Shown here piece after piece: positions 1-51,805 of a stretch of 64,000 nt of DNA. Origin of the DNA: Eledone cirrhosa (taxonomy: Eukaryota); contig OZ024742.1 in the NCBI GenBank assembly GCA_964016885.1, positions 281,852,001-281,916,000 of the forward strand, written 5' to 3'. Position numbers and translations under genes: made by a program. The notes beneath the pieces were generated by a model, which saw nothing but the letters and a program-made list of their open reading frames with translations, was not told the DNA's origin and did not search any database. Each line of letters begins with the position of its first letter. Position 1 is the first letter of the stretch.

Positions 1-663
1 AAAACTATCAATACTTACAGGCAAAATTCTCCGCTTCCGTGTAATTACAACCACACTAATACCAGCCATTTGAACGTATATATCCTTCTCAAGCATTCAT
101 TGAGCTAAATTCTACCTTGAAAACAGCAGTGAAACATATATAGGACTTAATGAACATCCCCTGCTGATTCAGAAATATTGTTTGTTTGTGGGTATATGTG
201 TGTAACACAGAGAGAGATAGTGAGAAAGGAATAGAGTAAAACAGAATTAAGAGAGAGAAACAGATAAGACAAAATGAATATCAAATAGAAAAGTAGGAGG
301 CAGTGTGAATAATAGACAGGAATTAAGAGAGAGAAGGGTAGTAAAGACTGAAGAAAAGCCGAGAAAATTTGACTTCCCGTAATGACGACATACTTTAGTG
401 CCTACGAACACACCTTTTCAACACTCTGTGTTTGTTAATTCTTTCACTACACCATCACCATTACATACTTCAGTGTTTTTCCATATCTATTTTTCATTTG
501 ATAGTACCTCACCTCATAAACAGTGAATCTGTTATTTTTATTATATGTATTATGTTGGTGAGAATTTTGACGACAACACGGCAAATTGCAGAAAGATTTG
601 TTGAGAAATGGCAACGTTAATTTTATGATAGAAATATTCGCATCTGCTTCATATATATATATA

Positions 664-741
<78 letters not shown>

Positions 742-890
742 GAAAAGAATGTATGTATACGTACATATATATATATGTGGAAAATATAAGTATGTATACG
801 TACATACATATATGTGTAGAGACGCACAGTAGCATGTATATATATACATACATGCACACATATATATATTTGTTCAACACTGACACAGGA

Positions 891-933
891 ACGATGTACT
901 AGTTTCAAGCTTATTAGCTATCATCAGCATCGT
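891..933 (-). ncRNA. Minimal type I hammerhead ribozyme
   Basis: Minus strand acgatg CTGATGA t-agct-aata-agct-t GAAA ctag TA catcgt: 6-bp stem I, stem II, palindromic CTAG domain III. Confidence 0.85.
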
Positions 934-1325
934 ATTCCTTTCTGTCAGATGATTGAACGTCTGAAAGTATATACTTTCCTTATGCATATTAACGGCTGAG
1001 AAGCCTAATTTGCATATCGAGTGGGTTAGTCGGCCGGGCATACCGAAAACGATAAATGGAAAAGAATGAGACGAAATTTCATTTCTCACTCTTAGTACGG
1101 TTGATACCTAAATATAAGTATGTATACGTATATACATATATGTGTACAGACGCACAGTAGTATGTATATATGCATACATGCATACATGCACACGTATAAT
1201 TATGTACGTATGGGTTTACCGAACATTTATTATAATGTTCGGTTTGTTTGTAAACAAACAGCCTGAATTACACCGTACAGTGCTCGGCAACCATCGTCGC
1301 CCTTTTGTTCAACACTGACAAAGGA

Positions 1326-1368
1326 ACGATGTACTAGTTTCAAGTTTATTAGCTATCGTCAGCACCGT
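1326..1368 (-). ncRNA. Hammerhead ribozyme, copy 2 of family A
   Basis: acggtg CTGACGA tagctaataaactt GAAA ctag TA catcgt; one stem II mismatch. Confidence 0.7.
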
Positions 1369-1654
1369 ATACCTTTCTGTCAGATGATTGAACGTCTGAA
1401 AGTATATAATTTCCTTATGCATATTAACGGCTGAGCAGCCTAATTTGCATATCGAGTGAGTTATACATACTTATATTTAGGTATCAGCCGTACTAAGAAT
1501 GAGAAATGAAATTTCGTTTCATTATTTTCCATTTATCTTTTTCGATACGCCCGGCCGACTAACTCACTCGATATGCAAATTAGGCTGCTCAGCCGTTAAT
1601 ATGCATAAGGAAAGTATATACTTTCAGTCGTTCGATCATCTGACAAAAAGGTAT

Positions 1655-1697
1655 ACGATGCTGACGATAGCTAATAAGCTTGAAACTAGTACAGCGT
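1655..1697 (+). ncRNA. Hammerhead ribozyme, copy 3 of family A
   Basis: acgatg CTGACGA tagctaataagctt GAAA ctag TA cagcgt; one stem I mismatch. Confidence 0.75.
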
Positions 1698-1896
1698 TCC
1701 TTTGTCAGTGTTGAACAAAAGGGCGACGATTGTTGCAGAGCACTGTACGGCATAATTCGGGCTGTTTGTTTACAAACAACCCGAACATTATAATAAATGT
1801 TCGGTAAACCCATACGTACATATATATATATATATGTGTGCATGTATGTATATATATACATAATACTGTGCGTCTGTTCACATATTTGTATGTACG

Positions 1897-2450
<554 letters not shown>

Positions 2451-10942: not shown

Positions 10943-11146
10943 GTCCCTATAGCTTGAGGGAAGTTCCCATAACAATGTGTTGTTATTGTCCATATAGCGT
11001 GAGGAAGATCCCGGACCTGAGGTGTCTACATGTTCCGGAGAAGTCCCTATAGCTTGAGGAAAGTTCCCATCCCAGTGTGTTGTTATTGTCCATATAGCTT
11101 GAGGAAGTTCCCGGCGCTGAGGTGTCTACATGTCCCGAAGAAGTCC
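10943..11146. repeat. Staggered partial tandem duplications at the 3' end of a PLE endonuclease
   Basis: gtcc(c/a)tatagc(t/g)tgagg(a/g)aag(t/a)tccc recurs near 10943, 10988, 11043 and 11088. Confidence 0.7.
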
Positions 11147-11745
11147 GTCCTGAGGTTTATCAGGCTGCTTCCACCGCTGAGAATCTCGAGGGTCTCGCTT
11201 AGACATAGTTTGCAGATGCCAGATCCCCCTTTATCAGCTGGTACTTTCCTTATTTTGGCCCAGGCCAGAGAGTACGGGGTCCTGTGCAGCTTGAGCTTCC
11301 AGATCAGTTCGGAAAGAGCCGCACTTTTCCTTTTGTCCTCCCTATTAAAGGAATGGCGATGGTTATACCATCGGTCTTTAAAGTTCGTAGAAGTGGCTCC
11401 TATGTAAAGATGTTCAGAGTTGGGGTTTTTTACTCTACATCCGTATATTAAGTTCTTCCTTAGGCATTCATTACTAAGGGGGCATAATGCTGGGTTTCTG
11501 CAGTTGCAGGAGGTGGTCGACCTCCGCGTGCCTAATGTGGAGTTCGCGTTGTGTATTATATAGTGGTGCTCCCCCGGGCCCGGTGGGGGGGGGGGGTCCC
11601 TGGGTTTGTTTGGGTTTCCAGGGTGGGCATTGGGTCCACCCTTCTTTCCCTCCAAATGGTTCTGCTGGGCGCTCATATTGCCAGCTTCTGGTTGTGTGTG
11701 GTTTTTATGTCTACCCATATTGATGCTAGCTATGTGCTGGGCCAT
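11083..11745 (-). pseudogene. 5'-truncated PLE GIY-YIG endonuclease (CNC-motif type)
   Basis: CNCRNPALCPLSNECLRKNLIY...LYIGATSTNFKDRWYNH...CKLCLSE...CRH; upstream part is replaced by (TA)n and another PLE. Confidence 0.85.
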
Positions 11746-11909
11746 ATATATATATATGTATATTGTTACACTTTGGGAGGGTCATGTTGCCAATAAGAAA
11801 CACACGCACCAGTTGCTTTCACTTCAATTTATTATAATAAATTTATAAATTTAGGAATTTATAAATTTCTGGTTGGTTGGTTCAACAACCAGATAGTTGT
11901 TTATATATT

Positions 11910-11952
11910 GTCAAAGTTCTTTCGTCACACATTCTGTGACCTCTTCAGTGAC
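11910..11952 (-). ncRNA. Hammerhead ribozyme in 3' pLTR
   Basis: gtca CTGAAGA g gtcaca gaatg tgtgac GAAA gaac TT tgac. Confidence 0.8.
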
Positions 11953-12153
11953 TGGGGATTCTTTTCTTTGTTTTTGTGCCTCTCCTTTGTTCTGTCCTAC
12001 GCCATTTTGTTTCTGTGTGTGTGTTGTGTGCTCAGTCTGTGCATGCGCCACATCCAAGTGTCTGTGTGTGTTTATATTTGTTTATTTATTTGTTTATTTA
12101 CATGTTACCAGTTGGTTGTTTGTTCTATGTGTGTGTGTGTTTTCATTTTGTCC

Positions 12154-15100
12154 TTAATTGTAAGTTGTGATGTTGCTGTTCCACTCATATTTTCTATTTA
12201 ATTTTGGTTGTAATTCTTTTATGTTTATTGCCTCTGTGATTTGTCTAAACATTGCGTCTTTTCTGTGTGTAGATTCTATTTTTATTTCTATGTTCTCTAA
12301 TTTACCCTTATATTCTATTTTAGCATGTTGGTAGAGTACAGATGATTCTTTACTATCTTGAAGGTCTAGCCAGTGTTCATTTATCCGTTCCCCTACACTA
12401 CGAGCTGTCTCACCTATGTACACTATATTTTTGTCTCTACATTGTCCTTCAGTACATCTTATGTTATACACTACAGTTCTAGTTTTACAGTTAATATGGG
12501 GGCGTATTTTACAGGTTATACATTTCTTATCTATACAAGGGGGTCTTTGGAAAGGGTATGTCTTGCTAATAAGTGTTTTTACGGAGGTACCTGGTCTTTC
12601 TACTATCTTAATATTGAGTTTATGTTTATCTAGGGCCCTTCTGAATTTGTAAGCTAATTCACCTCTAGGGGTTGTATCGATGAACATTACACTCTGGTAT
12701 TTATTGCTATCATACCATGAGTTTATTCTATTAGCCTTATTCCTAGTTCTTTCTATTCTATTCCAAAATTTGCTCCTATGCAAGGAGCAGGTCCCATTTG
12801 TGTCATTATTTACCATTTTTTCCCATTTGGTTCTGGCTCCTCTATACACTCTGATTCTATCTCTCTGATTGTAACCAGAGAACTGCATACGGTGTATGAA
12901 GTGTTGTATGTGTCTCTCTAGTTCTTCGGGGTTGCACATGCGGGACACGTTTCTCATCACCCGTACCAAATCCGCAATCAGTATTTTGATTTTGGTATGG
13001 TCCCAAACAGCCGAGTTTCGGTGGATCAGATGTTTGGAAGTCATGGGTTTGGCATAATGGGAATAGAGGATTTGTTTTTTGTTATTAATGGTATCTAACC
13101 AGAGCTCTGTGTCTAGTACAGGTAATCGATGGTTGGGGTGTTTACTTGAGTAGTCTATAGTAATTCTAATACTCTGGTGGATGGAGTTAGCTATTTGCTG
13201 GATGCTTTCCATTGTGTTTTTCTCTAGTTCCTGACTGTTCTCTAGTGGGGGTGTCTTAACTACGATATTTATATCGTCAACGTAGCGGGAGTACATTATC
13301 AGGGTTACGGGGTCTTCTAATTGTTCTTTAAGTTTAAGTTTAAGTCTACTGTCCCACCATACCATGAATAAGTTAGCTATGTCGCCTGCAATGCTAACAC
13401 CTATGTATGGCTGCTCCTTCCTCTTGGGCATATGTTTTTCCATTAAATTTGAACATATTTTCCTTAAGGGTTAGTTTTATGCTGGCCCCTACCGCATGTG
13501 CAATCATTTTCTTCAGTTCATCGTGGTTTTCGGGTGTCCGTATGACTCTGGTCCACCCGTTCCATCTATCTGTGTGGGTTTTCTTGGCCATTGAGGTAAT
13601 GGTAGGTGGTCTGCCTCTTGCTGGTCTTGTAGGGCACAGGTTGCTAAGGTCATATGTGTCTAGGTAATTATTACTATAGGTAAGTTTAAGTAGGAGTCCC
13701 AGCTCACTGGTATCAATCCCACGGAACTCAACATTGCTCTCACTGATCATTTCTACGCATTTCTCCACAGCAAAATCCACACCAATAGATGGATACAGGG
13801 ACACAACATCTATACTACCTATTATGCAGTTTGTTAGGTCCCTAGATCGGTTACTCTCGCCGATTCTGCTGAGGAGGTCCTCCGTGCTGTCACATACATC
13901 TGGGGACACTTCAATGATGGGGCGTATGATCAGGGAGAGGAAGTAGGACAGTCTGTAGTTACTAGCAATGTTAGCCCCACAGACTGGCCTTGTTGGTGGT
14001 CCCGTGACAGGGTCACTGCTCGTTTTATGGTCTTTTCGAAGCCCATACAACGCCGGCACGTCATTGTTCCAGGCCTGGAAGTTGTTGGCAGTCATTTTGT
14101 TGGGCTGCATTATATTCGTCCACATCACCATATGAGCATTGAGGGCTTTTTCTCTATCCTCATGCTCCTGTGGTGTTACCTCTCTGGTGTTAGTGATGTG
14201 GGGTTGCAATGCCTGGATGTAGTTTGGCAGGCTGTCAACCGACATTCTGCCAGACCTGTCTGTTGGAAAGCATGCTATCTCTCCATTACGTGAGCGCTGC
14301 ATGAGCTTATGCAAGCCATTTGCAGATTTTTCTCCCAGTTGCTGGGCCTCCATTCGATTATGCTTCTTGCTATACTGCTCTATAATATTTCTAAGTTCGG
14401 ATTTAGCTATACTAAATTGTGCTTCTGTTTGTTCATCGACCTGTGACGGCAATTGCGTGCGTTTGTTAAATGGTAAAGTCGTGGCGTGGACTCGTCGTAG
14501 GTCGAACGACTTATCGGAGGGATTATAAAAAGTAGAGTTCCAGGCTGCTGCTTTATTTGTACTAGTGCTATTGTTGTTGTTAGTTGTGTTGTTTCTATTT
14601 CTATTTCTATTTCTATTTCTATTTCCACCAACAGCCTCATGGTTGTTTCTATGTCTCTCATAATTACTCCTGTCTCTTTCCACTGGCTCATTGTTATTAT
14701 ATACTCTATTTTGTGTGTCTGTGTGTTCGTCTTGTTTATTTTCTTTGTCCATAGTCTCCCTTCTCCTTTTAATCCTATTACTTTCCCTTATTTCTGTGAT
14801 TTCTGTGCTACTGTCATTACTTGTTTTCTGTGTCTGTGTGTTTGTTAAGATTATGGTGGTGGTGAGAGGCATTGAATGTGTGTGTGTTGTTGTTGTTGAT
14901 GTGTGCTGTTGTTGTTGTCTCCGTGTGTGTTATTATTGTTGTGTGTGTTGTTATTGTTGTTTGTGTCTGCGTGTCTGTTGTTGTTGTTTCTGGGTATGTT
15001 ATTATTGTTGGTGTCTGTGTTGTTGTTATTGTTGTTTGTGTCTGTGTGTCTGTTGTTGTTGGGATGTGTGTTGTTTATGTGTGTGCGTATATTGTTACTT

Positions 15101-15818
15101 TTGTTTTTGTTTTTGTTTTTGTTTTTGAGGCTCCAACGTAATTTTGTAAATGATTTTTCTATTTCTGACAGACAACTAATCATATTTACCTTCTTGAATG
15201 TCGCAAATTTCGGTGGTAGAAGTAATACAGATAACTCATCGTCATCTATTGCCGTGTTGCCGTATATATTTGTGTTGTTGTTGTTGTTGAACTCATCTGT
15301 TAATGTGGTGTCGGCCATATTTATACCGTCAATTTTGTCGGGATATCTATTGGTATTCTCTACAGTATCCTGATTTAGTTTTATCTGCTTAAGCCACTTT
15401 AGTTTCTTGTTAAAGTGCTTATCACATTCTTGAGCAATGTACTGTTCTTCGGGACATATAAGGCTTATAAATATTAGTTTCTCTCTTGGTGTGATGATCC
15501 TAGCTATTTCTTGTATTAGGTTACGCTTATGTTTTTCTTGATGCCTTAATTCTCTATAGATCTTCTTTTTTATGTTTAGAATTAGTGTTCGTTTTAGCCT
15601 ATCTGCTTGTTTTTGGTGAGTTGTAATCTTCTTACGTCGGTGTTGATGGTGTTGGTGTAAACTCGGGACGAGGCACATTCTTTTATGAAGTGTAGTTGTC
15701 GAGATGTTATGGTTTTTCGTAGACAACAGAACATGGTGGTTTTCAGTATCTTGTTAGCCTGGCTAAGGCTTACGATATTTCGTTTCTGAATTTGTTTAGC
15801 AAAATTCTTTATCTGAAA
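12154..15818 (-). pseudogene. PLE polyprotein (N-terminal domain, RT, GIY-YIG), frameshifted
   Basis: PALYGLRKDHK, PTRPVCG, SIDVVSLYPSI, YAQEEGAAI/GVSIAGDIANLFM, SRYVDD, VVYNIRC...YIGETAR...RINEH; frame breaks near 15610, 14860 and 13405 (4-bp duplication relative to copy 2). Confidence 0.9.
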
Positions 15819-16082
15819 GAATTACAACCAAAATTAAATAGAAAATATGAGTGGAACAGCAACATCACAACTTACAATTAAGGACAAAATGAAAACACAC
15901 ACACACATAGAACAAACAACCAACAGGTAACATGTAAATAAACAAATAAATAAACAAATATAAACACACACAGACACCCGGATATGGCGCATGCGCAGAC
16001 TGAGCACACAACACACACACAGAAACAAAATGGCGTAGGACAGAACAAAGGAGAGGCACAAAAACAAAGAAAAGAATCCCCA

Positions 16083-16125
16083 GTCACTGAAGAGGTCACA
16101 GAATGTGTGACGAAAGAACTTTGAC
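16083..16125 (+). ncRNA. Hammerhead ribozyme in inverted pLTR
   Basis: Identical to the 11910-11952 motif on the opposite strand. Confidence 0.8.
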
Positions 16126-16647
16126 AATATATAAACAACTATCTGGTTGTGGAACCAACCAACCAACCAGAAATTTATAAATTCCTAAATTTATAAATGT
16201 ATTATAATAAATTAAATTGAAAGAAACTGGTGCGTGTGTTTCTTATTGGCAACATGACCCTCCCAAAGTATAAGAATATCGGTTTTAACACACGATTTCA
16301 GATAAAGAATCTTGCTAAACAAATTCAGAAACGAAATATCATTAGTATTTCATCGCTTTCAGACCATATACATCCGGTTGGTGCGAGCAACGGCTAAAAA
16401 AAGTCGTTGGGACACGTAAATAAAGGGGACACGAGAGTGTAAACAAAGAAAGATGGTGAAGCAACGAAAAGTGAGGAAGAACGAGTCATGTCCCAAATTT
16501 CCATGAATATAAGTTCGGTGAAATCGTGAACGAGAGAGAATAAAGACCATCAAACCTGGTTGGAATGTGAGCAAGGAAGGAATTCCGTACAGGTCTAACG
16601 GGAGGAAGAAGGAATCTAGTGTGTGAATTCGGTGCACATAAGTTCTG

Positions 16648-17772: not shown

Positions 17773-17828
<56 letters not shown>

Positions 17829-17834
<6 letters not shown>

Positions 17835-18213
17835 TAAGAGGAATTTCAACTTTGTCTGCTTTACTCGTTTTATTTACAATCCTTTAAAATTTATAATGGT
17901 ATTATAATGAAATAGTATGATAGAATATTAAATTCTAAGTGTTAATTGAACAAGTACTTTCATGCTTTCGCAATCTTCAGGTTCATAATATGTGGTGACA
18001 GTCAAGTTTGCAATTTTCAACTGTGAAAATTGCAAACTTGATTGTCACCACATATTATGAACCTGAAGATTGCGAAAGCATGAAAGTACTTGTTCAATTA
18101 ACACTTAGAATTTAATATTCTATCATACTATTTCTTATAATATTATTATAAATTTTAAAGGATTGTAAATAAAACGAGTAAATCAGACAAAGCTGGAATT
18201 CCTCTTATTAATA
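17829..18213. mobile_element. Near-perfect 385-bp palindrome with a hammerhead in each arm
   Basis: About 190-bp arms, 4-nt loop at 18020-18023; flanked by (TA)n. Confidence 0.9.
18058..18096 (+). ncRNA. Minimal type I hammerhead (mirror copy 17947-17985, minus)
   Basis: tgaac CTGAAGA t tgc gaaa gca t GAAA gtac TT gttca; GNRA loop II, palindromic GTAC. Confidence 0.85.
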
Positions 18214-18254
18214 TAATCTTCTATACACAATCATACACACCCGTGTATATTTAC

Positions 18255-19910: not shown

Positions 19911-21976
19911 TCAGCATAGCAACATACAACGCACAAGTGACGTCAGTGAGATCCCCCGGTAGTTGTTGGTGTTAGAGAGATCTCCCTTCTTTGGCACTGG
20001 GACGATGTTACTGATCCTCCACTGATTCGGGGCAACTCCTTTCTCCAGTGCCCCGTTACAGAACCCCAGGATGATATCATCAAAATCACACCTCTTCATC
20101 ACCTCTGATGCCACTCCATCCTCTCCATGAGCCTTGCCCTCCTTGATCTTCTTCTTGGCTCTCTGAAGCTCCTCTCTGGTGAAGGGCTCTGTCTCAACAT
20201 CCAGTTCCTCAAACAGCCGCCTGATCTCCCCACTGCTCTGGGCTGTGGAGGGTGGCTCTCCTAGTAGGGTCCTAAAATGGTCTAGCCATTTCCTCTTCCT
20301 ATCCTCGGGCCCCGTTCCCTGGATCTGACTCGAACACCTTTTCTTCCTCCCTGTGATCTCGTTGATGATCATCCAGCTCTCCTTACATCCAGATCTGTCA
20401 ACCGCTCTCTCCACACTTCTGATCTTCTCTATCAGTGCCTCCTCTCTGACCTCAGTGTAAGCGGTACAGAGCTCTTCCCTCATCACCTCCACAATCTCCA
20501 TCCTCTCCTCCGTAGGATCAGCATAGAATTGGTCCCTGGCAGCTTTCAGGTGTTCTCTGGCTGCACACACTTTTGGGTTTGCAGAGCTGACGTGCTTCCC
20601 TTTGTTCTTTTTCCTCGGCACCAGGGTTTCACTTGCTTTCGCCACTGCATTGGTGAAGTGCCCGTACCTCCTCGTCACACTCTCCTCAGTCCATCCAATC
20701 TCTCTCTCCCCTGACTCTCCACACAGAGCACTAAACCTGTTTCTCACTTCCACTGTGAACCTCTCCTGTAGCTTATCATCTTCCTTGAAAGCTCCCCAGT
20801 CATAGATTGTTCTCCGTGGCTGAGCCTTGCTCTTTCTTAAGCTCACGCGGACCTCACTCATAACAAGCCGGTGGTCACTACCCAGTGTACTGAAATAGCT
20901 GTATGGTTCCGTGTTCAGAACACTATTCCGCCACTTTTCCTCACCAGAATGAAATCAATCTGGGACTTGGACAGGTGCATATCTGAGATGTAGGTCCACA
21001 TCTTCCCCAGATTCTTCCTAAACCTTAGGTTGGTTGCCATCAAGTTCGCCTCCAGCAGGGTGTCTCTCAGTAGTCTTCCATTTCGGTTGGTGTTGTTATG
21101 GAAGTACCAGCAAGGATCTTCACTGCCCTCCTTACTCGGATGTGCATTGAAGTCCCCCAAAACAAGCAGGATATTGTGTGCCTGAGTGGTGTTGACAGCC
21201 CCACACACCTCCTCATGGAACTCCTCGGCATTCACATCACTGTCCCCCTCGGTTGGACTATAGGCTGAGATGACTGTCAGTCTTGGGTTTCCATTGAAGG
21301 TCACCCTCAACACTCGCGGGGAGATAGGCATTATTTCCCTCACCAACAGATTGGTTTTTGCACTGAACACAAAGCCCACTCCTCCTACTGCAGCATTTGT
21401 TGTGTTCTTCACTGCCGATGTAGTGATGAGCTGGCTCTTCCTCCCGATCATCACACTCCTCACGGGCTCATCGTGTAGAATCCTGTGTTCTTGGATCGCA
21501 AGTATCTGTATACCACTCTCCTCGAACAGATGTCCCAACTCCTCTCTCTTCTCCAGCGTTCGAATAGTCCTCACATTCAAAGTGCCCATTTTGATGGCTC
21601 TTCTGCAGGACAAAACTGCATTCTTTATATTTGTCTCAGAGACAGCTGATCCATCATCCACTGGCCCTCTCTGTGGCTCTAAGCCAGCAGAGTCATAACG
21701 ACCAGGCTGCTCCTTGACAGTGTAATTAGGGGCTCTAACCCTAGTGCTGTTAGATCGACTCTCCATATTTCTTTTCAATGGCTGACAATACCTTACCGGC
21801 GCCACTCGAATAAGGTAGTTATTTAACCCATAAATGGAGCCCTAACAGGTACTACCACCCCGGGCCAGGGCAGACCTGGGAGTCATGACAACTAAGGGGT
21901 AACTCCACATTCCCCACATCTCCTGAACTCCCGAACTGGAGCCTTGCCACTGGATGTAGTTTAATGTCATACCCAA
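19911..21976 (-). mobile_element. LINE (RTE-like, single APE-RT ORF), 5' end intact, 3'-truncated
   Basis: GTLNVRT, AIQEHR, SAYSPT, LGDFNAH, SQIDFIL, SDH (APE); then IVPVPKKGDLSNTNNYRGISLTS (start of RT); frameshift near 20930; GC-richer 5' UTR at 21840-21976. Confidence 0.88.
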
Positions 21977-21978
21977 CG

Positions 21979-22066
<88 letters not shown>

Positions 22067-22170
22067 CGTTGACAAATATATCAATATGCCCAGATATGCA
22101 GATATATTGCTCTTGGTATGACAGTGTGGTTTTAGCTCAAAGTAGGATAACTAGTATACTACAGAGCCGT

Positions 22171-22769
22171 TATAGTTATAGGAATAACCAAAGAGTGCTT
22201 AGAGATACATTGTTTTATTAGCTAACAGTGTTTCATCCATACACCATGGCAGGAATCATCAGAGCCTATAAACATGAGTATATCAGTAGTTGCATGCTCC
22301 ATCGAGCTGCGTCACCAGAACAAGGTTAAAGGACCAGCAGGGGGGTCGCGAGGCCAGCGCTATATGTAAAAAGACAGAATACATGATGCACATAATGTCA
22401 TAAAATGTCTTCAAAATTTAAAAATTAAAAATTACTCCTAAAATGTATCACTTAAATGGTGCAATAGATGATAAAGAGGTTTATTGCACCATTTAAGTGA
22501 TACATTTTTGGTGTAGTTTTTAATTTTTAAATTTTTAAGACATTTTATGACTTTATGTGAATCATGTATTCTGTCTTTTTCTATATAGCGCTGGCCTCGG
22601 GACCCCCCTGCTGGTCCTTTAACCTTGTTCTAGTGACGCTGCTCGATGGAGCATGCAACTACTTATATACTCATGTTTATAGGCTCTGATGATTCCTGCC
22701 ATGGTGTATGGATGAAACACTGTTAGCTAATAAAACAATGTATTTCTAAGCACTATTTGGTTATTCCTT

Positions 22770-22776
<7 letters not shown>
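22171..22776. mobile_element. About 605-bp palindrome with a hammerhead in each arm
   Basis: About 295-bp arms with 15-nt spacer (22467-22481); HHR at 22221-22265 (-) and 22683-22727 (+). Confidence 0.9.
22683..22727 (+). ncRNA. Type I hammerhead ribozyme
   Basis: gct CTGATGA t tcc tgc catggt gta t gga t GAAA cactg TT agc; stem I extends tgttt/aaaca. Confidence 0.75.
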
Positions 22777-22830
<54 letters not shown>

Positions 22831-23100
22831 CCGGCATGCCTTCCGCTGCACCTCCTCCAACCTCGTCTATGGACTTCGCTGCACGGAGTGCAACGCAACC
22901 TACGTCGGACAGACTGGACGTCGCCTGGCGTATCGGTTCACGGAGCACTTCCGAGATGTCCGTCTCGACGGGAGTTCCCCCATCGCCCGCCCCTTTGGTT
23001 CCCATGGACATTCCGCCGACGACCTCACAGTCTGCGGCCTGATCCAATGCCATGGGACCCCTGCCACCCGTTTCACGCTCGAACAACACACCATCTTCAC
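22831..23100 (+). pseudogene. PLE GIY-YIG endonuclease fragment followed by a C-rich 3' region (to about 24210)
   Basis: FRCTSSNLVYGLRCTECNATYVGQTGRRLAYRFTEH...LEQHTIF. Confidence 0.85.
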
Positions 23101-24176
23101 CTCAACACGCACACACCCACCTGCATATGTATACACGCACTCACACTATTCACACAACCTACTACCACCATTAACCCCACCCACACATCCACATTTGACC
23201 ACCCCACCACTAATATTACTACCACCACCACCCCAACACACCTTTCCCCGCACCACACACACACGACCACACACCATCGCACATACTCTCACCCACACCT
23301 ACGTACACACCGATACACTACCCACTCCACACACACACTACACCACTAACCCACACCGCATTCAACCCCTACCCCCACCACCAGTAATACCAACACCCAC
23401 GCTACCACACACACACACACACACACACTCATATCCAAACACGCACACACACACCAGTACACTACACTCCCTCCTACCTCCCCAACGCCTTCGCCCCCCA
23501 TCTCTCTCTCCCAACTCTACCAACACCCCCCACTCCCACTAATGCCTCCACTAATATACATACCAATCCCCTACACCGCCTCCCTCTCCCTCCACCTTTC
23601 ACACGTATCCATCCCCTTCCCTGTCCGCCGCACCTCCCTCCACACATACACACATTCCCCACCACATATAGACCTTTCTATACCTGTCAACCTCCACACT
23701 ACAGCCGCTGTCATCTCCCTCTGTCAACTCCCACCTCCTTCGCCCTGCCTTGACCTCTGACCACTTCCTGTTGCGCGCGCACCCCTATCTCTCCACTTCC
23801 TCACTACCACACCAGGATTTTACACCACGGTCCCATCGCTCCTGCTATCCATACTACCACACCTGGAATCTCCAATATCTGATCTCACAATCAGTGGAAA
23901 ATCCCCAGCAGCAACACACACGCACACAAAGATTTACACTATTTTCTCACCACGCCACCATACACCCACACCACATATAAACACACACACACATGCGTAT
24001 CCCCACATACACGCACTCAGCCTCCAGACTCCATACGCCCCTCTCCCCCACCCCCTCTGACCCGTCTCCATCCACACGCACACACACACCGACTTACAAC
24101 CCACCCCATGTACACACCGGTTTCCCTATTACTCGAACATGGAATCTCATTGTTCCCCCAGCTCTCACATTCACAT

Positions 24177-31589: not shown

Positions 31590-32073
31590 ACATAAGAACA
31601 TCTGCTTGCCCCCTTATGCCCTTGAGGTACTGTGAATATAAGGATTAATAACTTTGAATTCAGTAGAAAATGTAATATTCAGTTTGCTTAAATTGATAAA
31701 GAAAAAAGAATCTTTGATTTATTTGTTCAACTTTAGAACAACAGTATGTTACAGTTGGTCTGTTGGTGTTTATACGAACACACACACACACATATATATA
31801 CACACACACGCTCATATATATGCATACATATCAATCATACATACACACCCTCATACTCCCAGGCATGCATGTATATATATATATATATATACATATATAT
31901 ATAAATAATTAATATCTAGTAACATATATATACATACAGATGCATATCAATGCTAGCAAATATATAGGTTTTGTCTTAGTAACTTTGTGGTTCAATGCAT
32001 GGGGTTGCAGAACAATAATATGAGAGACGTAAAATAAGAAAATTATAAAATTAACTTACTTACTAAAATATCA

Positions 32074-32153
32074 CTTCCAACTAATTAGTTTCTGGAATGG
32101 AATAAATATATTTTCCGAAGAAAACACAGAGAATCATTCCGTCGTCAGGGAAG
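32074..32153 (-). ncRNA. Hammerhead with extended domain II (diverged family H copy, element about 31900-32200)
   Basis: cttcc CTGACGA c ggaatg...tgtgttttc TTCG gaaaatata...cattcc a GAAA ctaattag TT ggaag. Confidence 0.85.
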
Positions 32154-32285
32154 ACTATTCTCATCTAAGTATCCAGGCAAAGCGTGGACACTTTGTTTTT
32201 GACCACTGCCGAAATTCGACCTCGCTGAAATTATATTTATATGTGTATATATATATGTGTATATATATATAGAGAGAGAGATAAC

Positions 32286-32596: not shown

Positions 32597-33005
32597 TACG
32601 AGTTCTGTCCCAAAAGTAAAGGTACTAATTGTCATATGCACGGCATTGTAATGCAGCACCTCGTTGATGTATATAACCGTGCTATTTACTATCTTCGCTG
32701 TACGTACGGGTCCAGTGATTCGAAAGGACATTATGGGAGATTGGTTACTGCACCACGATAATGCGGCTGTTCACACAACACTTTCAGTTAGAGAATTTCC
32801 GGAGAAGAAAAACGTTCCTGCTCTTCCACATCCTCTCTACATCCCAGATCTAACTCCGTGTGATTTCTACTCCTCTCCTACGTTGAAATCGAAGTTGAAG
32901 GGTCATCATTTTGGTACTGTGGAAAACGTACAAAAAATTGTAACTGACAAGCTAGGGACACTCACAGAAAATTATTTCCGGCACTGCTACGATCAATGGA
33001 AAAAG
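32597..33005 (+). pseudogene. Mariner transposase remnant, internally deleted
   Basis: WLLHHDNAAVH...PHPLYIPDLTPCDF...LKSKLKGHHF; TIR-like TACGAGTTCTGTCCCAAAAGT at 32597. Confidence 0.85.
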
Positions 33006-33068
33006 AGTTCTACGCCTAATATACATTTAAATAAAATATCAGCACCTCCGCTTTTAAGAAAAACCTCG

Positions 33069-33128
<60 letters not shown>

Positions 33129-33135
33129 TGCATGC

Positions 33136-33177
<42 letters not shown>

Positions 33178-33185
<8 letters not shown>

Positions 33186-34557
33186 CGTAAAATAAGAAAA
33201 TCCCTTTAAAAAAAATTTTTTTTTTTAAATTTTTACTTACTTAAATTTTCACTCCAACTAATTAGTTTCTGCAATGGGATAAAGACAGTTACGTAATCTA
33301 ACTGTCGAGAATTCATTGCGTCATCAGGGAGTCTATTCTCAGCTAAGTCTCCAGGCAATGCGCGGACACTGGCGGCTCATATAAAAATAATAATAATTCG
33401 GTAGATGGAACAGCTAGCGAGGACTGAATTCCATGCACTGAAATCCTCACTGCCTCTTGTCAAATGGCCGATTCTAAAGAATCAATCACGTGACACAGAG
33501 GCTAGTCAGAAGGAATGGGATGGTAAGATGACAGACGCCTACTAACACCCCCCCAAAAAAAAATTTTTTTAGAAGTGGTTTTGGCAGGTTTGCTCGACAA
33601 ATCAGTGATTTGGAGATAAATATAGATAATTTAATATATCAACTAATATAAGTGCACAGATGCACGCCTATGCCAGCAAATACACAGGTTATGTCATAGT
33701 ACCTAGGTGGTTCAATGCAGGAGGATGCAGAACAATAATATAAAAGACGTAAAATGAGAAAATCCCTTTAAAAAAAATTTTTTTTTTAATTTTTACTTAC
33801 TTAAATTTTCACTCCAACTAATTAGTTTCTGCAATGGGATAAAGACAGTTACGTAATCTAACTGTCGAGAATTCATTGCGTCATCAGGGAGTCTATTCTC
33901 AGCTAAGTCTCCAGGCAATGCGCGGACACTGGCGGCTCATATAAAAATAATAATAATTCGGTAGATGGAACAGCTAGCGAGGACTGAATTCCATTTATCT
34001 CCAAATCACTGATTTGTCGAGCAAACCTGCCAAAACCACTTCTAAAAAAATTTTTTTTTTGGGGGGGGGGATGTTAGTAGGCGTCTGTCATCTTACCATC
34101 CCATTCCTTCTGCCTAGCCTCTGTGTCACGTGATTGATTCTTTAGAATCGGCCATTTGACTAGAGGCAGTGAGGATTTCAGTGCATGGAATTCAGTCCTC
34201 GCTAGCTGTTCCATCTACTGAATTATTATTATTTTTATATGAGCCGCCAGTGTCCGCGCATTGCCTGGAGACTTATCTGAGAATAGACTCCCTGATGACG
34301 CAATGAATTCTCGACAGTTAGATTACGTAACTGTCTTTATCCCATTGCAGAAACTAATTAGTTGGAGTGAAAATTTAAGTAAGTAAAAATTAAAAAAAAA
34401 AAATTTTTTTTAAAGGGATTTTCTTATTTTACGTCTTTTATATTATTGTTCTGCCTCCTCCTGCATTGAACCACCTAGGTACTATGACATAACCTGTGTA
34501 TTTGCTGGCATAGGCGTGCATCTGTGCACTTATGTTAGTTGATATATTAAATTATCT
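33178..34557. mobile_element. ORF-less element H: about 1.45 tandem 560-nt units plus an inverted full monomer
   Basis: 33178-33432 repeats at 33740-33993; 33994-34557 is one permuted inverted unit; HHRs at 33251-33332 (-), 33811-33892 (-), 34287-34368 (+). Confidence 0.88.
34287..34368 (+). ncRNA. Hammerhead with 51-nt domain II
   Basis: actcc CTGATGA c gcaatg aattctc gacagtta gattacg taactgtc tttatcc cattgc a GAAA ctaattag TT ggagt. Confidence 0.88.
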
Positions 34558-36882: not shown

Positions 36883-37218
36883 TCTCGCTCTCTCTCTATC
36901 TCTCTTTTCTAAACTCCTTTATATATATATGTATATATATATATGTGGGGGGGGGGGGGGCGTGTGTATGTATATATATATATATATACATAGTATAGAG
37001 TAAAGCATGTCCAGAGAATTATTTGATAATATATATACATCATCTCTATTCCCAATCAGCATAATTAACCACACAAAAAAATCAATTAGACCGGGCTATA
37101 AGAATAAAAGGCACCTATGAAGAAACAGTAAATAAATACGCCACAGCAACGTCTTCGTGTCCAACCGCTATAGAATATTTACCCAACATTTCAACAGCAT
37201 ATATATATATATATATAG

Positions 37219-40200
37219 TATTATACCTTGGGAGGGTCATGTTGCCAATAAGAAACACACGCACCAGTTGCTTTCACTTCAATTTATTATAAATTAAATT
37301 TATAAATTTTGGAATTTATAAATTTCCGGTTGGTTGGTTGGTTCCACAACCAGACGATTTTTCATATATTGTCAAAGTTCTTTCGTCAAACATTCTGTGA
37401 CCTCTTCAGTGACTGGGGATTCTTTTCTTTGTTTTTGTGCCTCTCCTTTGTTCTGTCCTACGCCATCTTGTTTTTGTGTGTGTTGTGTGCTTAGTTTGCG
37501 TATGTGTCACATCCGGGTATCTGTGTGTGTTTATATTTGTTTATTTATTAGTTTATTTACATGTTACTGGTTGGTTGTTTATTCTATGCGTGTGTGTGTT
37601 TTCATTTTGTCCTTAATTGTAAGTTGTGATGTTGCTATTCCATTCATGCTTTCTATTTAATTTTGGTTGGAGTTCATTTATGTTTATTGCCTCTGTGATT
37701 TGTCTAAACATTGCGTCTTTTCTGTGTGTAGATTCTATTTTTATTTCTATGTTCTCTAATTTACCCTTATGTTCTATTTTAGCATGTTGGTAGAGTACAG
37801 TTGATTCTTTACTATCTTGAAGCTCTCGCCAGTGTTCATTTATCCGTTCTCCTATACTACGAGCTGTCTCACCTATGTACACTATACTCTTATCTCTACA
37901 TTGTCCTTCAGTACATCTTATGCTATATACTACATTTCTAGTTTTACAGTTAATATGGGGGCTTAATTTACAGATTATACATTTCTTATCTATACAGGGA
38001 CGTCTTTGAAAAGGGTATGTATTGCTAATAAGTGTTTTTATGGAGGTACCTCGTCTTTCTACTATCTTAATATTGAGTTTATGTTTATCTAGGGCCCTTC
38101 TGAATTTGTAAGCTAATTCACCTCTAGGTGTTGTATTGATGAACATTACACTCTGGTATTTATTGCTATCATACCATGAGTTTATTCTATTAACCTTATT
38201 CCTAGTTCTTTCTATTCTATTCCAAATTTTGTTCCTATACAAGGTGCAGGTCCCATTTGTATCATTATTTACCATTTGTTCCCATTTGGTTCTGGCTCCT
38301 CTATATACTCTCATCTTATCTCTCTGATTGTAACCATAGAACTGCATACGGTGGATGAAGTGTTGTATGTGTCTCTCTAGTTCTTTGGGGTTGCACATGC
38401 GGGACACGTTTCTCATCACCCGTGCCAAATCCACAATCAGTATGTTGATTTTGGTGTGGTCCGAAACAGCTGAGTTTCGGTGGATCAGGTATTTGGAAGT
38501 CATGGGTTTGGCACAATGGGAATGGAGGATGTGTTTTTTGTTCTTGATAGTATCTAACCAGAGCTCTGTACAGGTAATCGATGGTTGGGATGTTTGATTG
38601 GGTAGTCTATAGTAACTCTAATACTCTGGTGGATGGAGTTAGCTATTTGCTGGATGCTTTACATGGTGTTTTTCTCTAATTCCTGATTGTTCTCTAGTGG
38701 GTGTGTTTTTACTACGATGTTTATATCATCAACGTAGCGGGAGGTCATTATCAAGCTTAAGAGGTTGTTGTCTTCTAATTGTTCTTTAAGTTTAAGTTTA
38801 AGTCTATTGTCCCACCATACCATGAATAGGTTAGCTATGTCACCTGCAATGCTAACACCAATGGCCGGTCCCTCCTCTTGGGTATATGTTTTTCCATTAA
38901 ATTTGAACATATGTTCGTTAAGGGTTAATTTTATACTGGCCCCCAACGCATGTGCAATCATTTTCTTTAGTTCATCGTGGTTTTCGGGGGTTCGTATGGC
39001 TCTGATCTACCCGTTCAATCTATCTGTGTGGGTTTTCTTGGCCATTGAGGTAATGGTAGGTGGTCTGCCTCTTGCTGGTCTTGTAGGGCACAGGATGCTA
39101 AGGTCGTATGTATCTAGATAGTTATTACTATAAGTAAGTTTAAGTAGGAGTCGCAGGTCACTGGTATCAATCCCACGGAATTCAACATTGCTCTCACTGA
39201 TCATTTCTACGCATTTCTCCACAGCAAAATCCACACCAATAGATGGATACAGGGACACAACATCCATACTGCCTATTATGCAGTTTGTTAGGTCCCTAGA
39301 TCGGTTACCTTGGCTGATTCTGCTGAGGAGGTCCTCCGTGCTGTCACATATATCTGGGGACATTTCAATGATGGGGCGTATGATCAGGGAGAGGAAGTAG
39401 GAAAGTCTGTAGTTACTAGCAATGTTAGCTCCACAGACTGGCCGTGTTGGTGGTCCTGTGACAGGGTCACTGCTCGTTTTATGGTCTTTTCGAAGCCCAT
39501 ACAACGCTGGCACGTCATTGTTCCAGGCCTGGAAGTTGTTGGCAGTCCTTTTGTTGGGCAGCATTATGTTTGTCCACATCATCATATGGGCATTGAGGGT
39601 TTTTTCTCTATCCTCATGCTCTTGTGGTGTTACTTCTCTTGTGTTAGTGATGTGGGGTTGCATTGCCTGGATGTATTTTGACAGACTGTCAACCGACACT
39701 CTGCCAGACTTGTCTGTTGGAAAGCATGCAATCTCTCCATTACACGAGCGCTGCATGAGCTTACGCAAGCCATTTGCAGATTTTTCTCCCAGTTGCTGGG
39801 CCTCGATTCTATTTTGCTTCTTACTATACTGTTCTATAATGTTTCTAAGTTTAGATCTAGCTATACTAAATTGTGCTTCTGTTTGTTCATCGACCTGCGA
39901 CGGCAATTGCGTGCGTTTGTTAAAAGCTAAAGTTGTGGCGTGGACTCGTCGCAGGTTGAAAGACTTATCGGAAGGATTATAAAAAGTAGAGATCCAGGCT
40001 GCTGCTTTATGTGTGCTATTGCTATTGTTATTGTTAATTGTGTTGTTTCAATTTCTATTTCCACCAACAACCTCATGGTTGTTTCTATGTCTCTCATTAT
40101 TACTCTTGTCTTTTTCCTCTGGCTCATTGTTATTATCTACTCTATTTTGTGTGTCTGTGTGTTCGTCCTGGTTATTTTCTCTGTCAGTATTGATAGTCTC

Positions 40201-41113
40201 CTTTCTCCTTTCAATCCTATTACTTTCCCTTATTTCTGTGTTACTGTCATTATCTGTTTTCTGTGTCTGTGTGTTTGTTAAGATTGTGGTGGTGGTGAGA
40301 GGCATAGAATGTGTGTGTGTTGTTGTTGTTGTTGTTGATGCGTGCTGTTGTTGATGTGTGTTGCTGTTGTTGTCTCCGTGTATGTTATTATTGTTGTGTG
40401 TATTGTTATTGTTGTTTGTGTCTGTGTGTCTGTTGTTGTTGGGATGTGTGTTGTATGTGTGTGTGTGCGTATGTTGTTACCTTTGTTTTTGTTTTTGTTT
40501 TTGAGGCTCCAACGTAATTTTGTAAATGATTTTTCTATTTCTGACAAGCATTTTATCATATTTACCTTATTATATGTGGCATATTTAGGTGGTAGCTGTA
40601 ATATCGATAATTCATCACAGTCGACTGTAGTGTTGCCGTACATATTTGTGTTGTTGTTGTTGCATTCATTCAAAATGAAAACACACACACACATAGAACA
40701 AACAACCAACAAGTAACATGTAAATAAACAAATAAATAAACAAATATAAACACACACAGACACCCGGATGTAACACATGCGCAAACTAAGCGCACAACAC
40801 ACACACAAACAAGATGGCGTAGGACAGAACAAAGGAGAGGCACAAAAACAAAGAAAAGAATCCCCAGTCACTGAAGAGGTCACAGAATGTGTGACGAAAG
40901 AACTTTGACAATATATGAACAATCGTCTGGTTGTGGAACCAACCAACCGGAAATTTATAAATTCCAAAATTTATAAATTTAATTTATAATAAATTGAAGT
41001 GAAAGCAACTGGTGCGTGTGTTTCTTATTGGCAACATGACCCTCCCAAAGTATAACAATATCGGTTTCAACACACGTTTTCAGATAAAGAAACTTGCTAA
41101 ACAAATTCAGAAA

Positions 41114-41115
<2 letters not shown>
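37219..41115 (-). mobile_element. Second, 5'-truncated copy of the 11.8-16.3 kb PLE family with inverted pLTRs
   Basis: Arms 37219-37610 and 40671-41060; HHRs at 37371-37413 (-) and 40867-40909 (+); flanked by (TA)n. Confidence 0.92.
37613..40668 (-). pseudogene. PLE RT-GIY-YIG polyprotein, fragmented
   Basis: YGLRKDHK, SMDVVSLYPSI, QEEGPAIGVSIAG, SRYVDD, YIGETAR; several frameshifts. Confidence 0.9.
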
Positions 41116-42453: not shown

Positions 42454-44619
42454 ATTCAGTAGTCAAGCAAATCAAGACCACAAACTCACATAGAAGGCAT
42501 TAGTCAAAGAGTATCAACATTAAGTGCAGTTTAATATAAAAAAGAGAGGATAAGAATGTCAGTTTACAATTGTTTCACTACTCCATATAATATCAATCGA
42601 TGGTAAGAGACCATTATTGAGTTCAAGGGCTTATTCTGGACAAGAAAGGACAGAACGGATAACATTGATATCACAATGGGCTCCAGCGATTCCGCGCAAG
42701 TCACAGACTTAGTTGGAATCTACCTCTTACACATCATTAGAGCTGAGCTCCCTCTTTTGCAAGGTGGATTATATAGGAACGACGCCCTATTTGCAGTCCA
42801 CAATTGCACGGATCGTGGCATTGAATTGCTCAAAAAACAACTACATAGATTATTTAAAGATAACGGTCTATCTATTACCATCGAACCTAATCATAAGGTA
42901 GTGAATTTCCTGGATGTCACCCTTGATCTTACGAATAATTTATATTACCCTTATCATAAACCAGGTGAGATACTTACTTATATTATCCCGCACTCTAACC
43001 ACCCACCGGCAGTCATCAGAGCAGTCATTAATTCTATCTCACAGGATTTCCATGCTATCCGCCAATGAGGAGATATTTAATGCCCATGCAGCATATTATA
43101 ATAAGGCCCTTTCTAAATCTCGTTATGCACAGTCTATCTACTACATACCTAAAGACCATAACACAGAACTTCACCACAACCCCAATGACTTTAACACTAG
43201 AACTAGAAACACATTAGCATTTAGCCAGATTTGCCAGAATTTTAGCTCTACCAATACTATACAGGTAATCGTAATAGTGGCAGAGGCCTACTCCCTAATC
43301 CTAGTAACAGATTCAGAATCAACCCTAGAATACGAAATGTTAATAGGCTGACAATTAGCAAGCACCTTGGCAATAATAACCCTATTAATGCCTCTGTTAG
43401 ACCCCATAGAAGTAACAGGCCTAGAAAAATCACCTGGCTTAACGCCCCTCTCTCATCTAATTTAGCTACTAACATCCCTAAACGCTTCTTCTCCATCCTA
43501 TCTAAACACTCCATCCCGCCCAACCATAGATATTACAAACTTTTTAATAAAAATAATATTAAAATCTCCTTCTCCACTACACCGAAGCTAGCTAGCCACA
43601 TCGCATTCAGCAACCATCATAAACTAAAAAAATGTAACCCTCCACACCCAATTCCCCCCCCCCCCCCGCCCCATACGTACACCATGCAACAAACCAATAC
43701 TCATCCTAGTAGCGGAACTGCCCCCTCCAATCCCACAAGTACACACCAGCCGCATAGTTTAAACAACCCTACTCCTACTAATTGTAATTGCAACTGCCGT
43801 AAACCCAATGTTTGGCCGCCTAATAGGCAGTGCATCACGCCCAATATCGTATATAGGTGCACGGTTATAACGGCCTCATCTACTAGCTCTTATACTGGCT
43901 CTACATCTAACCCCTTTAAGGTCCGCTTTAATGCGCACTCATTTTCCTTCCGCGACCCTAGCCATAGATACTCAACCTCTCTAGCCAGGCTCATTAAAAA
44001 CCTTAAACTAGCCAACATTGAACATTCACTAACTTGGGATATCTTAGCTAGATCTCCAGCGTTTAATGGGAGAAGAAACTGTTACGATCTCTGTCTTACC
44101 GAGGCCTATCACATAACTTTGTCAAGGCCACTCCCAATCAATGACAGGAATGAGTTGGTCATCAACTGCCATTATTTCTACTTTATATATATATATATAA
44201 TTTCATTATCTCATCTCAAGTTCCGAGGATCTGCTCCATAATATCATTTTATGTTACTTATCTTTCTCTGCACCAAATCAATAACGATCTTACCATCGAT
44301 TGATCCAGAAATATTATATGGAGTAGTGAAACAATTGTAAACTGACATTCTTATCCTCTCTTTTTTTATATTAAACTGCACTTAATGTTGATACTCTTTG
44401 ACTAATGCCTTCTATGTGAGTTTGTGGTCTTGATTTTCTTAAGTACTGAATATTTCCAGCTCTGTACACCTAACCTCCGCACGAATCCAGCTTTCCAACT
44501 GCTTTCCACTACATATTGCACATCGAGCACCCGCTTTTAAGCTTTTGGCTTCTAATACCTTCACCAATCTCTCCTATCCTATCTCTATCTCTCCATTTAA
44601 GATTGGTTTACTCTTGAAC

Positions 44620-45189: not shown

Positions 45190-45709
<520 letters not shown>

Positions 45710-45920: not shown

Positions 45921-46444
45921 TGTGTCTGTGAGTGCGCGCGTGTATCAATGGTGAATCGACGTAGGCGTTAGAACGTCAGCTAGACAGCATCTATTACAAA
46001 TACCAAGCTACAGCCATGAAATCTTCACACGGTTCATATTGTCCATGGAATCATTCCTAACAGTCTTAGATTATGTCTCACCAAATAGATGAGTCTACAA
46101 CATTTCATAAGATTGTCAGATTATTGTCTAAAGACGTAGACAGGTTGCAGCATTAACACATAAGTACAAAGATACAGTTCGATACAAATATTAATGTCGG
46201 CTGCTTCAATCAGAGATGTCTTATATATATATATATATATATAAAAATGCAATATTTATATATATGTATATGTATATGTACAAGTATGACCCCGACGGCA
46301 GAGCTCAATTCTGGACTGAATTAGCCGTCCAGAATTGCTCTGCCGTCGGGGTCATAATTGTTCCTATTACCCACTCTACTACCCTAAGTATTGAGTACTT
46401 TGGTGCATTATGAGTCCATCCGGTTCCTTACCACATTTCCTTCG

Positions 46445-46519
<75 letters not shown>

Positions 46520-46696
46520 TAAAAACCAATGAATAAAAACAAAGAAATAGTTCCTTATATTAAAAAAATTCATCATTTTACGATCTAGGATATATATGTG
46601 TGTGTTGGTATGTATATCATATAGATCTATGTAAAAATGTTACAAATTATCAGAGGAAATATACATACCTACACATATATATGCTGTCTTCAGAAA

Positions 46697-46888
46697 TAAT
46701 TGTTTCTACTTTTGGCACAAGGCCAGCAATTACCCAGTACATTACTGGTACTTTATTTTATCGACCCCGTAAGGATGAAAGCAAAAGTTAACCTCGACGG
46801 GATTTGAACTCAGAATATCAAGGGCCGTAACTCTGTGCGTCAAAGCATGGCGTTCGACTCTCAACCAATACTGCCAATCCACCTGCCA
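46697..46888 (-). mobile_element. SINE with 10-bp TSD cagaaataat
   Basis: TSD at 46691-46700 and 46891-46900. Confidence 0.85.
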
Positions 46889-47559
46889 AACAGAAATAAT
46901 GATATTTGTTTATTGAAGAAAAACAACAAAGATTTAATATAATAGATCTGTTTGGGAACAGGTTTTGAATTGACCAATAGAAAAGTAGTAAGTGGTCAAG
47001 TTGATAGAATAGTAGTAGTAGAAATTTAATTTAGGGGTAGAGGAATGCAGACTTAAGTTTTGAATGGAAAGAATACTTTGAATAAAAAGATTACTTTGGG
47101 GATGAAAAGAGGTCAAGCCAGTGAAAGGTACACGAAAATTTGGTGTTATTAAAGCATAATGCTAATGTGAAAATCGAAGGAGAATAAAATGTTAGGGTAA
47201 AGTGTTAGTGAGAAATACCAATCGTATTTAAAACACAAGGAATTTAGATCTATAACAAGAAATTAAATTAATTTAATTGATAGGTATACTTATAGGGATA
47301 AATTTATAGTAATTCATATAGATGTGATAAATAAGAGTTAGATGTTATTAAAGAATATTGTTAAAAACGAGGAAAAACTTTTTGGGGATTTAGTGAGAAA
47401 TAACAAACTTATATAGACTACAAGGAATTTAGATTCATAACAGGAAATTAAAATAGTTTATATGTATACTTATAGGTATTCATTTTAGGAAAAGAGAGCT
47501 GTAAAAGGGAAATAAAATTATGAAGTTCTCAGTAGTAAAATACTAATTATAGGTTAGAA

Positions 47560-49650: not shown

Positions 49651-49808
49651 TAATATACACCTTACACTTATATTTTACAAATTATTATAATTAGTTCTTT
49701 TAATTTAGTTAAGCTATAATTAGTATTTTACTACTGAGAACTTCATAATTTTATTTGCTTTTTACAGCTCTCTTTTCCTAAAATTAATACCTATAAGTAT
49801 ACATATAA

Positions 49809-51773: not shown

Positions 51774-51805
<32 letters not shown>

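Follow-up and report, generated by a model that had tools for sequence, protein, structure and literature searches.

Short repeats with a hammerhead ribozyme in every unit have been described from coral, mussel and axolotl as metazoan non-LTR retrozymes, and these repeats yield abundant circular RNAs (PMC7229834). Circles have been proposed as transposition intermediates in two accounts (PMC4209133 and PMC7229834), but found no support in the in vitro work as set out in PMC11167929. Most recently a preprint (bioRxiv 10.64898/2026.07.22.740005) has already argued that the retrozymes of animals are non-autonomous sequences belonging to Penelope-like retroelements (PLEs). The layout of PLEs themselves has been described as direct repeats next to an inverted copy, for the most part head to head, with one end optionally carrying a tail (PMC3846280, PMC8557442). 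In an anole PLE the tail sits between two internal RT start sites, and internal initiation explains the read-through of the unit junction (PMC11167929). Two builds of hammerhead were defined in PMC4209133, the canonical metazoan one and the minimal one of PLEs, with a helix I of 4-5 bp and a long helix II. Literature searches for retrozymes in cephalopods and for hammerhead ribozymes in octopus found no paper, within an incomplete coverage, and the words hammerhead and ribozyme are absent from the available text of the Octopus vulgaris repeat annotation (PMC13282606).

The locus described here lies in a stretch of 64,000 nt from Eledone cirrhosa (contig OZ024742.1, positions 281,852,001 to 281,916,000; hereafter the window), animal-type DNA that is rich in microsatellites and contains a SINE-like repeat, a LINE-type endonuclease frame and several GIY-YIG frames. 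The output of repeat finders for the window is dominated by microsatellites, and TRF reports only (AT)n, the 435-nt tandem not being called. The coordinates of the features are collected in Table 1. A unit length of 435 nt (37.5% GC) was obtained independently in each arm of the main insertion and, read in the ribozyme sense, the arms begin at the centre and run outward into (TA)n, the sequence of both flanks in which a target-site duplication of more than 4 bp was looked for. It had been suggested in a preliminary description of this DNA that the inverted arm is about one unit long and reads through the unit junction, and the alignment bears this out (1462-1904 being 435 nt plus 8). The tail-to-ribozyme junction is identical in the left and right arms and was therefore already in the template; it is seen in one insertion only, the copy at 45 kb being too short to span it. 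The three ribozyme blocks of the main insertion are 4.4-5.7% apart over the 159 nt common to all three, and their private changes (3, 5 and 4) form a star pattern, which fits a single template followed by decay. At 740-790 there are two successive short pieces, each from the tail-end motif and skipping ~45-50 nt, that could be repeated false RT starts or later slippage.

The preliminary description had also listed a further fragment at 45255-45408. A related piece does lie at 45254-45409, with ~10% substitutions relative to the main insertion, and is itself two-armed and inverted, so that the family numbers two insertions within the 64-kb window. The arms of this second copy share two variants absent from the main insertion, and the copy therefore comes from a different master. 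Nothing had been said in that description of the minus ribozyme strand of the left arm, the 107-nt loss, the rearranged end at 790-740 or the inversion at 45 kb.

Table 1. Features of the 435-nt element and of its second copy in the window (strand of the ribozyme; a dot where no strand applies).
Feature	Position	Strand	Remarks
Whole insertion	740..1904	.	Two head-to-head arms, 3' ends outward into (TA)n; from self-BLAST, alignment and junction
Left arm	740..1463	-	~1.93 template units; in order, inner unit with 5' truncation, tail plus linker, outer unit carrying the deletion, tail end in rearranged form
Predicted 435-nt monomer	897..1331	-	Span between both cleavage sites; ends pair over 25 nt
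Tail between short and long 3'-end sites	1057..1118	-	Two hairpins
Inner hammerhead domain	1307..1393	-	Core 1362-1332; one mismatch in helix II, one G-U in helix I
Outer hammerhead domain	872..958	-	Core 927-897; no defect in helices I and II; a single private change, in helix I internal loop
107-nt deletion site, outer unit	869..870	-	Missing part equivalent to 1304-1198
Rearranged outer end	740..790	-	Two short joins, each skipping the tail interior, finishing at the tail-end motif
Inversion junction	1462..1463	.	Arms overlap by 2 nt
Right (inverted) arm	1462..1904	+	One 435-nt unit plus 8 nt, ends at short site; end at 1901-1904 ambiguous against TA repeat
Third hammerhead domain	1630..1716	+	Core 1661-1691; mismatch at third pair of helix I
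Left (TA)n flank, probable target	651..738	.	
Right (TA)n flank, probable target	1897..2000	.	Runs on past 2000
Second insertion, left arm	45254..45297	-	End near short site; internal deletion
Second insertion, right arm	45298..45409	+	End at tail site; has two diagnostic variants in common with its left arm

On the minus strand, type I hammerhead cores begin at 927 and 1362 and put the cleavage nucleotide (H17) at 897 and 1332, 435 nt apart. Two tandem hammerheads at this spacing had been recognised before, at 891 and 1326, positions that fall in helix I. The third core, on the plus strand of the inverted arm, has its cleavage nucleotide at 1691. The catalytic core is complete in all three copies and the canonical build in one of the three, while the other two each carry one mismatch, in helix II or in helix I. 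The ribozyme has a helix I of 6 bp with an extension of -22 to -26 kcal/mol, a 4-bp helix II that has U-U at the base, and a helix III of one pair plus a palindromic tetraloop. A strict motif scan gave nine matches in the window, where 100 shuffles averaged 0.03; within the 435-nt insertion it passed one copy (927), the other two failing the helix filters and being found by the core pattern. Rfam gave no match at gathering score anywhere in the window, and Hammerhead_HH9 (RF02275) reached only 19 bits at 879-941, against a cut-off of 52, so that the identification of the hammerheads rests on core, helices and spacing. Sub-threshold Rfam matches to microRNAs in the window were rejected because they arise from TA-rich hairpins. 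The exact 21-nt ribozyme pattern had no match in bacterial and archaeal genomes, and blastn against plasmids found none.

Every ribozyme copy of the locus is altered in one of the helices I and II or in the loop of helix I, the loop position having a presumed role. With a damaging change in each of its three ribozymes and 107 nt missing from the outer unit, the locus looks like a decayed copy and, since no ribozyme is unchanged, its sequence suggests that it is probably a poor source of monomers. For the tandem as a whole, a double-hammerhead fold is predicted to be 1.2 kcal/mol less stable than the minimum and 4.4 more stable than two separate folds.

The claim that the 435-nt monomer is ORF-less stands, its longest sense ATG frame being 71 codons with no credible protein relative. 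Although 435 is divisible by 3, an endless ORF round a circle is ruled out by at least three stops per turn in every frame. When 95 PLE-type homologues were compared with the element by tblastn there were no matches at E 0.05, and 10 ORFs of the window found nothing better than E 0.87 inside it. No Pfam family was above cut-off in four frames of the element, with two weak sub-cut-off matches in one of the four, and two word-based searches with the two longest non-repeat frames, among proteins of near length, returned no relative. The single match of a full HMMER search, to a ladybird-beetle protein made of 69-residue repeats, was judged to be due to chance; its identity is 22-26% per repeat and its score is summed over six repeats. 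The unit is without a detectable coding role.

Folded as a circle, the 435-nt unit is predicted to be unusually stable (z -5.4 and -6.1, with none of 60 shuffles as good), whereas four other ribozyme arms gave z of -1.2 to +0.1 and 14 control windows -2.1 to +2.4. The value is still near -5 when the ribozyme and a purine-pyrimidine tract are left out, and the unit is more structured than the 3' UTRs of PLEs in the window in four of five segments, among them the ones that lie outside the ribozyme. For the excised monomer, pairing of its ends over 25 nt is predicted with probabilities of 0.5-1.0. The antisense strand folds equally well (z -6.2 and -6.3). In the hairpins of the tail 56 of 57 cells are paired, with three one-sided changes and no two-sided ones, in a comparison of three sequences only for which the shuffle control was uninformative. 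The fold prediction is one of a highly self-paired monomer in which the ribozyme would be free to form.

The ends of the insertions follow a rule. In the 435-nt family the short site is used by the right arm, at 1904, and by the left arm of the 45-kb copy, ~10 nt further on; the other two ends are at the tail site, 50-62 nt beyond the short site, in (TA)n. Both insertions therefore have one short end and one tail end, that of the main insertion on the left being rearranged. The description of the copies as circularly permuted, in the sense of free starts, is not supported by this comparison: the points at which copies differ are, in the ribozyme sense, their 5' truncation ends, while the 3' ends, at which RT starts, cluster at two sites 50-62 nt apart. 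Across the window the ribozyme strands point outward in seven of seven paired arms, and one short and one tailed end, with tails of 39-114 nt, are found in eight of nine inverted insertions, these eight being the ones with both ends placed; the ninth is at 50/52 kb. The two end sites match the two RT start sites of a PLE (PMC11167929), a match made by analogy with the anole element as reported there. The ORF-bearing PLE at 11760-16340 has a tail whose final 45 nt match the sequence at the beginning of the element's own body, and this element thus reads through its own unit junction. As the ORF-bearing PLEs of the window share the layout, read-through of the junction does not by itself indicate a circle.

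Other elements in the window are of several kinds. A second ORF-less element with the same layout lies at 33176-34557 and has a unit of 560 nt, a fold of z -5.2 and a hammerhead of type I whose helix II region is 51 nt long (cores at 33887 and 33327 on the minus strand and at 34292 on the plus strand); its short end is on the left, a 114-nt tail is on the right, and its right arm is one unit less 2 nt. All three of its cores and their helices look intact and its arms are only ~1% different, which makes it a better test subject than the 435-nt locus. A diverged copy of the 560-nt family (~75%) at 31895-32192 ends at the tail site and keeps the base of helix II by a two-sided change. Frameshifted Penelope-like copies with RT and GIY-YIG, 90% alike, occupy 11760-16340 and 37215-41115, and both have an inverted arm, one short end and a tail of 54-61 nt. 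The retroelement ORF at 12157-13470 has 95 relatives, among which the one that carries a species name is a protein of Octopus bimaculoides (54% identity over 62% of the query); the composition of the repeats also looks octopus-like. Further hammerhead cores are found at 11948 and 16087; the automatic choice made for those at 37409 and 56171 is unreliable. A motif like a splice donor directly follows the tail sequence at 15773-15769 (minus) in the body of the 12-kb PLE; 5' introns have been described in PLEs. An inverted pair of ribozyme arms of the same 12-kb family, with no ORF, a short end and a tail, is found at 55979-56530, and three more inverted hammerhead-bearing insertions, of other families, at 17827-18254, 22064-22777 and 49803-52640, the tails at 22 kb and 52 kb starting alike.

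Single hammerhead cores occur at 6241 (+), 9935 (-), 19464 (-) and 54653 (-), three of them upstream of TA-rich ends, and are probably truncated PLE ends. Frames resembling GIY-YIG lie at 11086-11781, 22727-23539, 43246-44238 and 48781-49548, with sub-cut-off Pfam matches for the first two only. At 19914-21841 (minus) a LINE-type endonuclease frame (Pfam Exo_endo_phos, below cut-off) is followed by a frame like the start of an RT. The SINE-like repeat, of ~200 nt, is present at 2517-2950 and in about ten other places, 71-94% alike (14 BLAST rows), and a 1.3-kb inverted pair at 46254-47475 and 52643-53968, 82% alike, has a short palindrome and a SINE copy. A 185-codon frame at 32652-33206, which had no Pfam match at E 0.01, presumably resembles a fragment of a mariner-type transposase.

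Compared with the metazoan non-LTR retrozymes of coral, mussel and axolotl (PMC7229834) the element is likewise short, low in GC, ORF-less and strongly self-paired, with a type I hammerhead per unit. Its helix III, of one pair and a palindromic tetraloop, is like that of HHR_Amex1, and the U-U at the base of helix II is like that of HHR_Amex2 (both PMC7229834). The differences are in size, 435 nt against the 170-400 nt reported there for the RNAs, and in the number of units, less than two here against a long array; an inverted second arm and a one-sided tail are not among the features described in the available text of PMC7229834. As a tandem the element has two cores over ~1.93 units, with the outer unit deleted and helix II of the inner one weakened. 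The retrozymes of the preprint (10.64898/2026.07.22.740005) are, as there reported, also ORF-less ribozyme units tied to PLE pseudo-LTRs, with a range of 51-972 bp that includes 435 nt; the evidence given there for the link to PLEs is co-occurrence and sequence trees, mostly in vertebrates, whereas here it is the anatomy of insertions. The TRF step outlined in that preprint would miss the 435-nt locus. In a search of the window for the pLTR of an autonomous partner, the element had at most 12 nt in common with nine other ribozyme regions, not counting TA repeats, and no partner was found there.

The likeness to EN+ PLEs, as these are described in PMC3846280, PMC8557442 and PMC11167929, extends to two direct repeats with an adjacent head-to-head inverted copy, a one-sided tail, 5' truncation, 5' junctions with microhomology, an AT-rich target and a hammerhead on the sense strand. 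The element differs from them in having no RT or GIY-YIG ORF, in a hammerhead that is canonical and not minimal, and in a tail of 50-62 nt against 30-40 bp. The ORF-bearing PLE of the window, unlike the 435-nt element, shows the minimal build, in which helix I is short and helix II long. MRC1 and other non-autonomous Chlamys PLEs are likewise ORF-less derivatives, with pLTRs and head-to-tail copies, but are green algal and belong to a clade that lacks canonical hammerheads (PMC8557442). The LTR retrozymes of plants, as summarised in PMC7229834, resemble the element in being ORF-less, ribozyme-bounded and modelled on a circular RNA; their type III ribozymes, LTRs, high GC and 4-bp target duplications were not seen in the 435-nt element, which has type I ribozymes and 37.5% GC.

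It is on this basis very probable that the element belongs with the metazoan non-LTR retrozymes and is a non-autonomous Penelope-like retroelement. From its sequence it would appear to work like a PLE minus the ORF and to have the features of a non-LTR retrozyme, its status as a tandem being borderline. The tie between animal non-LTR retrozymes and PLEs having been published already, the element as such is ordinary.

The explanation that best covers the whole, and which we consider likely, is a PLE-type retrozyme copied in the following way. A master locus of head-to-tail 435-nt units would be transcribed, adjacent hammerheads would pair through their palindromic helix III so that monomers are cut out, and the monomers might be closed into circles by a host ligase, as related elements suggest. 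The protein of an autonomous PLE, acting in trans, would nick (TA)n, and reverse transcription would begin inside the RNA at the short or the tail site, as the fixed ends imply. Two cDNAs, one per site, would break off early, or when about one or two units had been copied, and would then join head to head through the 2-nt overlap, the layout itself being observed.

What served as the template is a separate matter. Each long arm crosses the hammerhead cleavage site, and the template was therefore a re-ligated circle or an uncut multimer. Of the circular or concatemeric template proposed in the preliminary description there remains the requirement for a circle or for more than one unit; the use of read-through as a sign of a circle falls, as the ORF-bearing PLE shares it. 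Fixed ends and attachment to a longer ORF-bearing PLE had there been named as observations that would speak against a circle; the ends are fixed, and such attachment was not found. By analogy with related elements a circular RNA probably exists for the family, if with considerable doubt, and the chance that it was the template of the insertion at 740-1904 is close to even but somewhat below it. Arm lengths offer a purely computational test between circle and uncut multimer. Among arms with a known unit, six extend over about one unit or more, shorter truncated arms being left out, and their 5' ends, counted from each arm's own 3' end, are offset from whole turns by +8 and -32 nt in the 435-nt family, by -2 and +257 in the 560-nt family, and by -16 and about -550 in the 4-kb family. 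If arms stopped uniformly, two of six within 10 nt would have P 0.012, three of six within 20 nt P 0.003 and four of six within 35 nt P 0.0008, with P 0.010-0.037 for the four ORF-less arms alone. A substantial caveat that applies to these values is that the test was chosen post hoc. The right arm of the 435-nt element (short site, +8 nt) and that of the 560-nt element (tail site, -2 nt) stop at their own start and not at a shared site. Such one-turn stops fit a circular template and provide a lead, and could also be given by a start site with bound protein or by a fixed RNA end.

The reading closest to the preferred one keeps the class and takes as template a linear uncut multimeric transcript, with no circle in mobility and the ribozyme idle or acting at another step. 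It has to be taken seriously, at rather less than an even chance. According to PMC11167929 ribozyme mutants of the anole PLE inserted unaffected in vitro and no RNA-seq reads ended at the cleavage site, and eight of nine Xenopus dimers were reported as uncleaved in vitro (10.64898/2026.07.22.740005); the window's ORF-bearing PLE also shows junction read-through, and a protein bound at the next start site may halt RT after one unit as well. An idle ribozyme sits poorly, however, with the canonical build, the favoured double-hammerhead fold, the compact unit and arms that stop near one turn, and similar repeats of coral, mussel and axolotl make circles in abundance (PMC7229834). A linear monomer may instead have been copied, with RT jumping from the 5' end of that RNA to the 3' start site, on the same molecule or on another, and so mimicking a circle. 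In the 560-nt element 2 nt separate the start of the right arm from the left arm's tail junction, which is what a fixed RNA 5' end would produce, and there are short jumps at the outer left end of the 435-nt insertion; but in the 435-nt element both arms have the same tail-to-linker junction without either of them starting at it, and this course of events is quite improbable.

Two further explanations would remove the 435-nt family or the ribozyme itself from the account. A PLE locus may have lost its ORF, or RT may have jumped from tail to 3' UTR, leaving a one-off derivative, with the other copies being 5'-truncated PLE ends. The junction is seen in one insertion only, the star-like divergence is as expected from a single template, the unit is close in size to the 3' UTR and tail together in the window's ORF-bearing PLE (about 455 nt), and microhomology deletions are described in PLEs (PMC3846280). 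Such an origin would nevertheless have to account for a unit far more structured than the 3' UTRs of the window's PLEs (in four of five segments), a ribozyme that is not of the minimal PLE type and the lack of any coding remnant, and is regarded as unlikely. That the locus is a DNA-level duplication, a satellite or an assembly artefact in a microsatellite-rich region, its ribozyme motif incidental, is very improbable. The flanks are indeed long (TA)n, both strands fold equally and Rfam is below threshold, but the copies differ by 4-7% and so are not a collapsed or doubled read, the motif count is far above chance, and the end rules are shared with other families.

The full PLE signature of inverted arm, one-sided tail and TA target on an ORF-less unit supports PLE proteins as the mobiliser, and this support comes from anatomy and not only from sequence kinship. 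It is a tentative and rather doubtful further suggestion that ORF-less insertions derived from PLEs carry the DNA footprint of a circular template, RT starting from a fixed internal site, going round once and halting at its own start. If this were true genome-wide it would be sequence evidence for ribozyme-made circles as transposition intermediates of animal retrozymes, and perhaps of PLEs.
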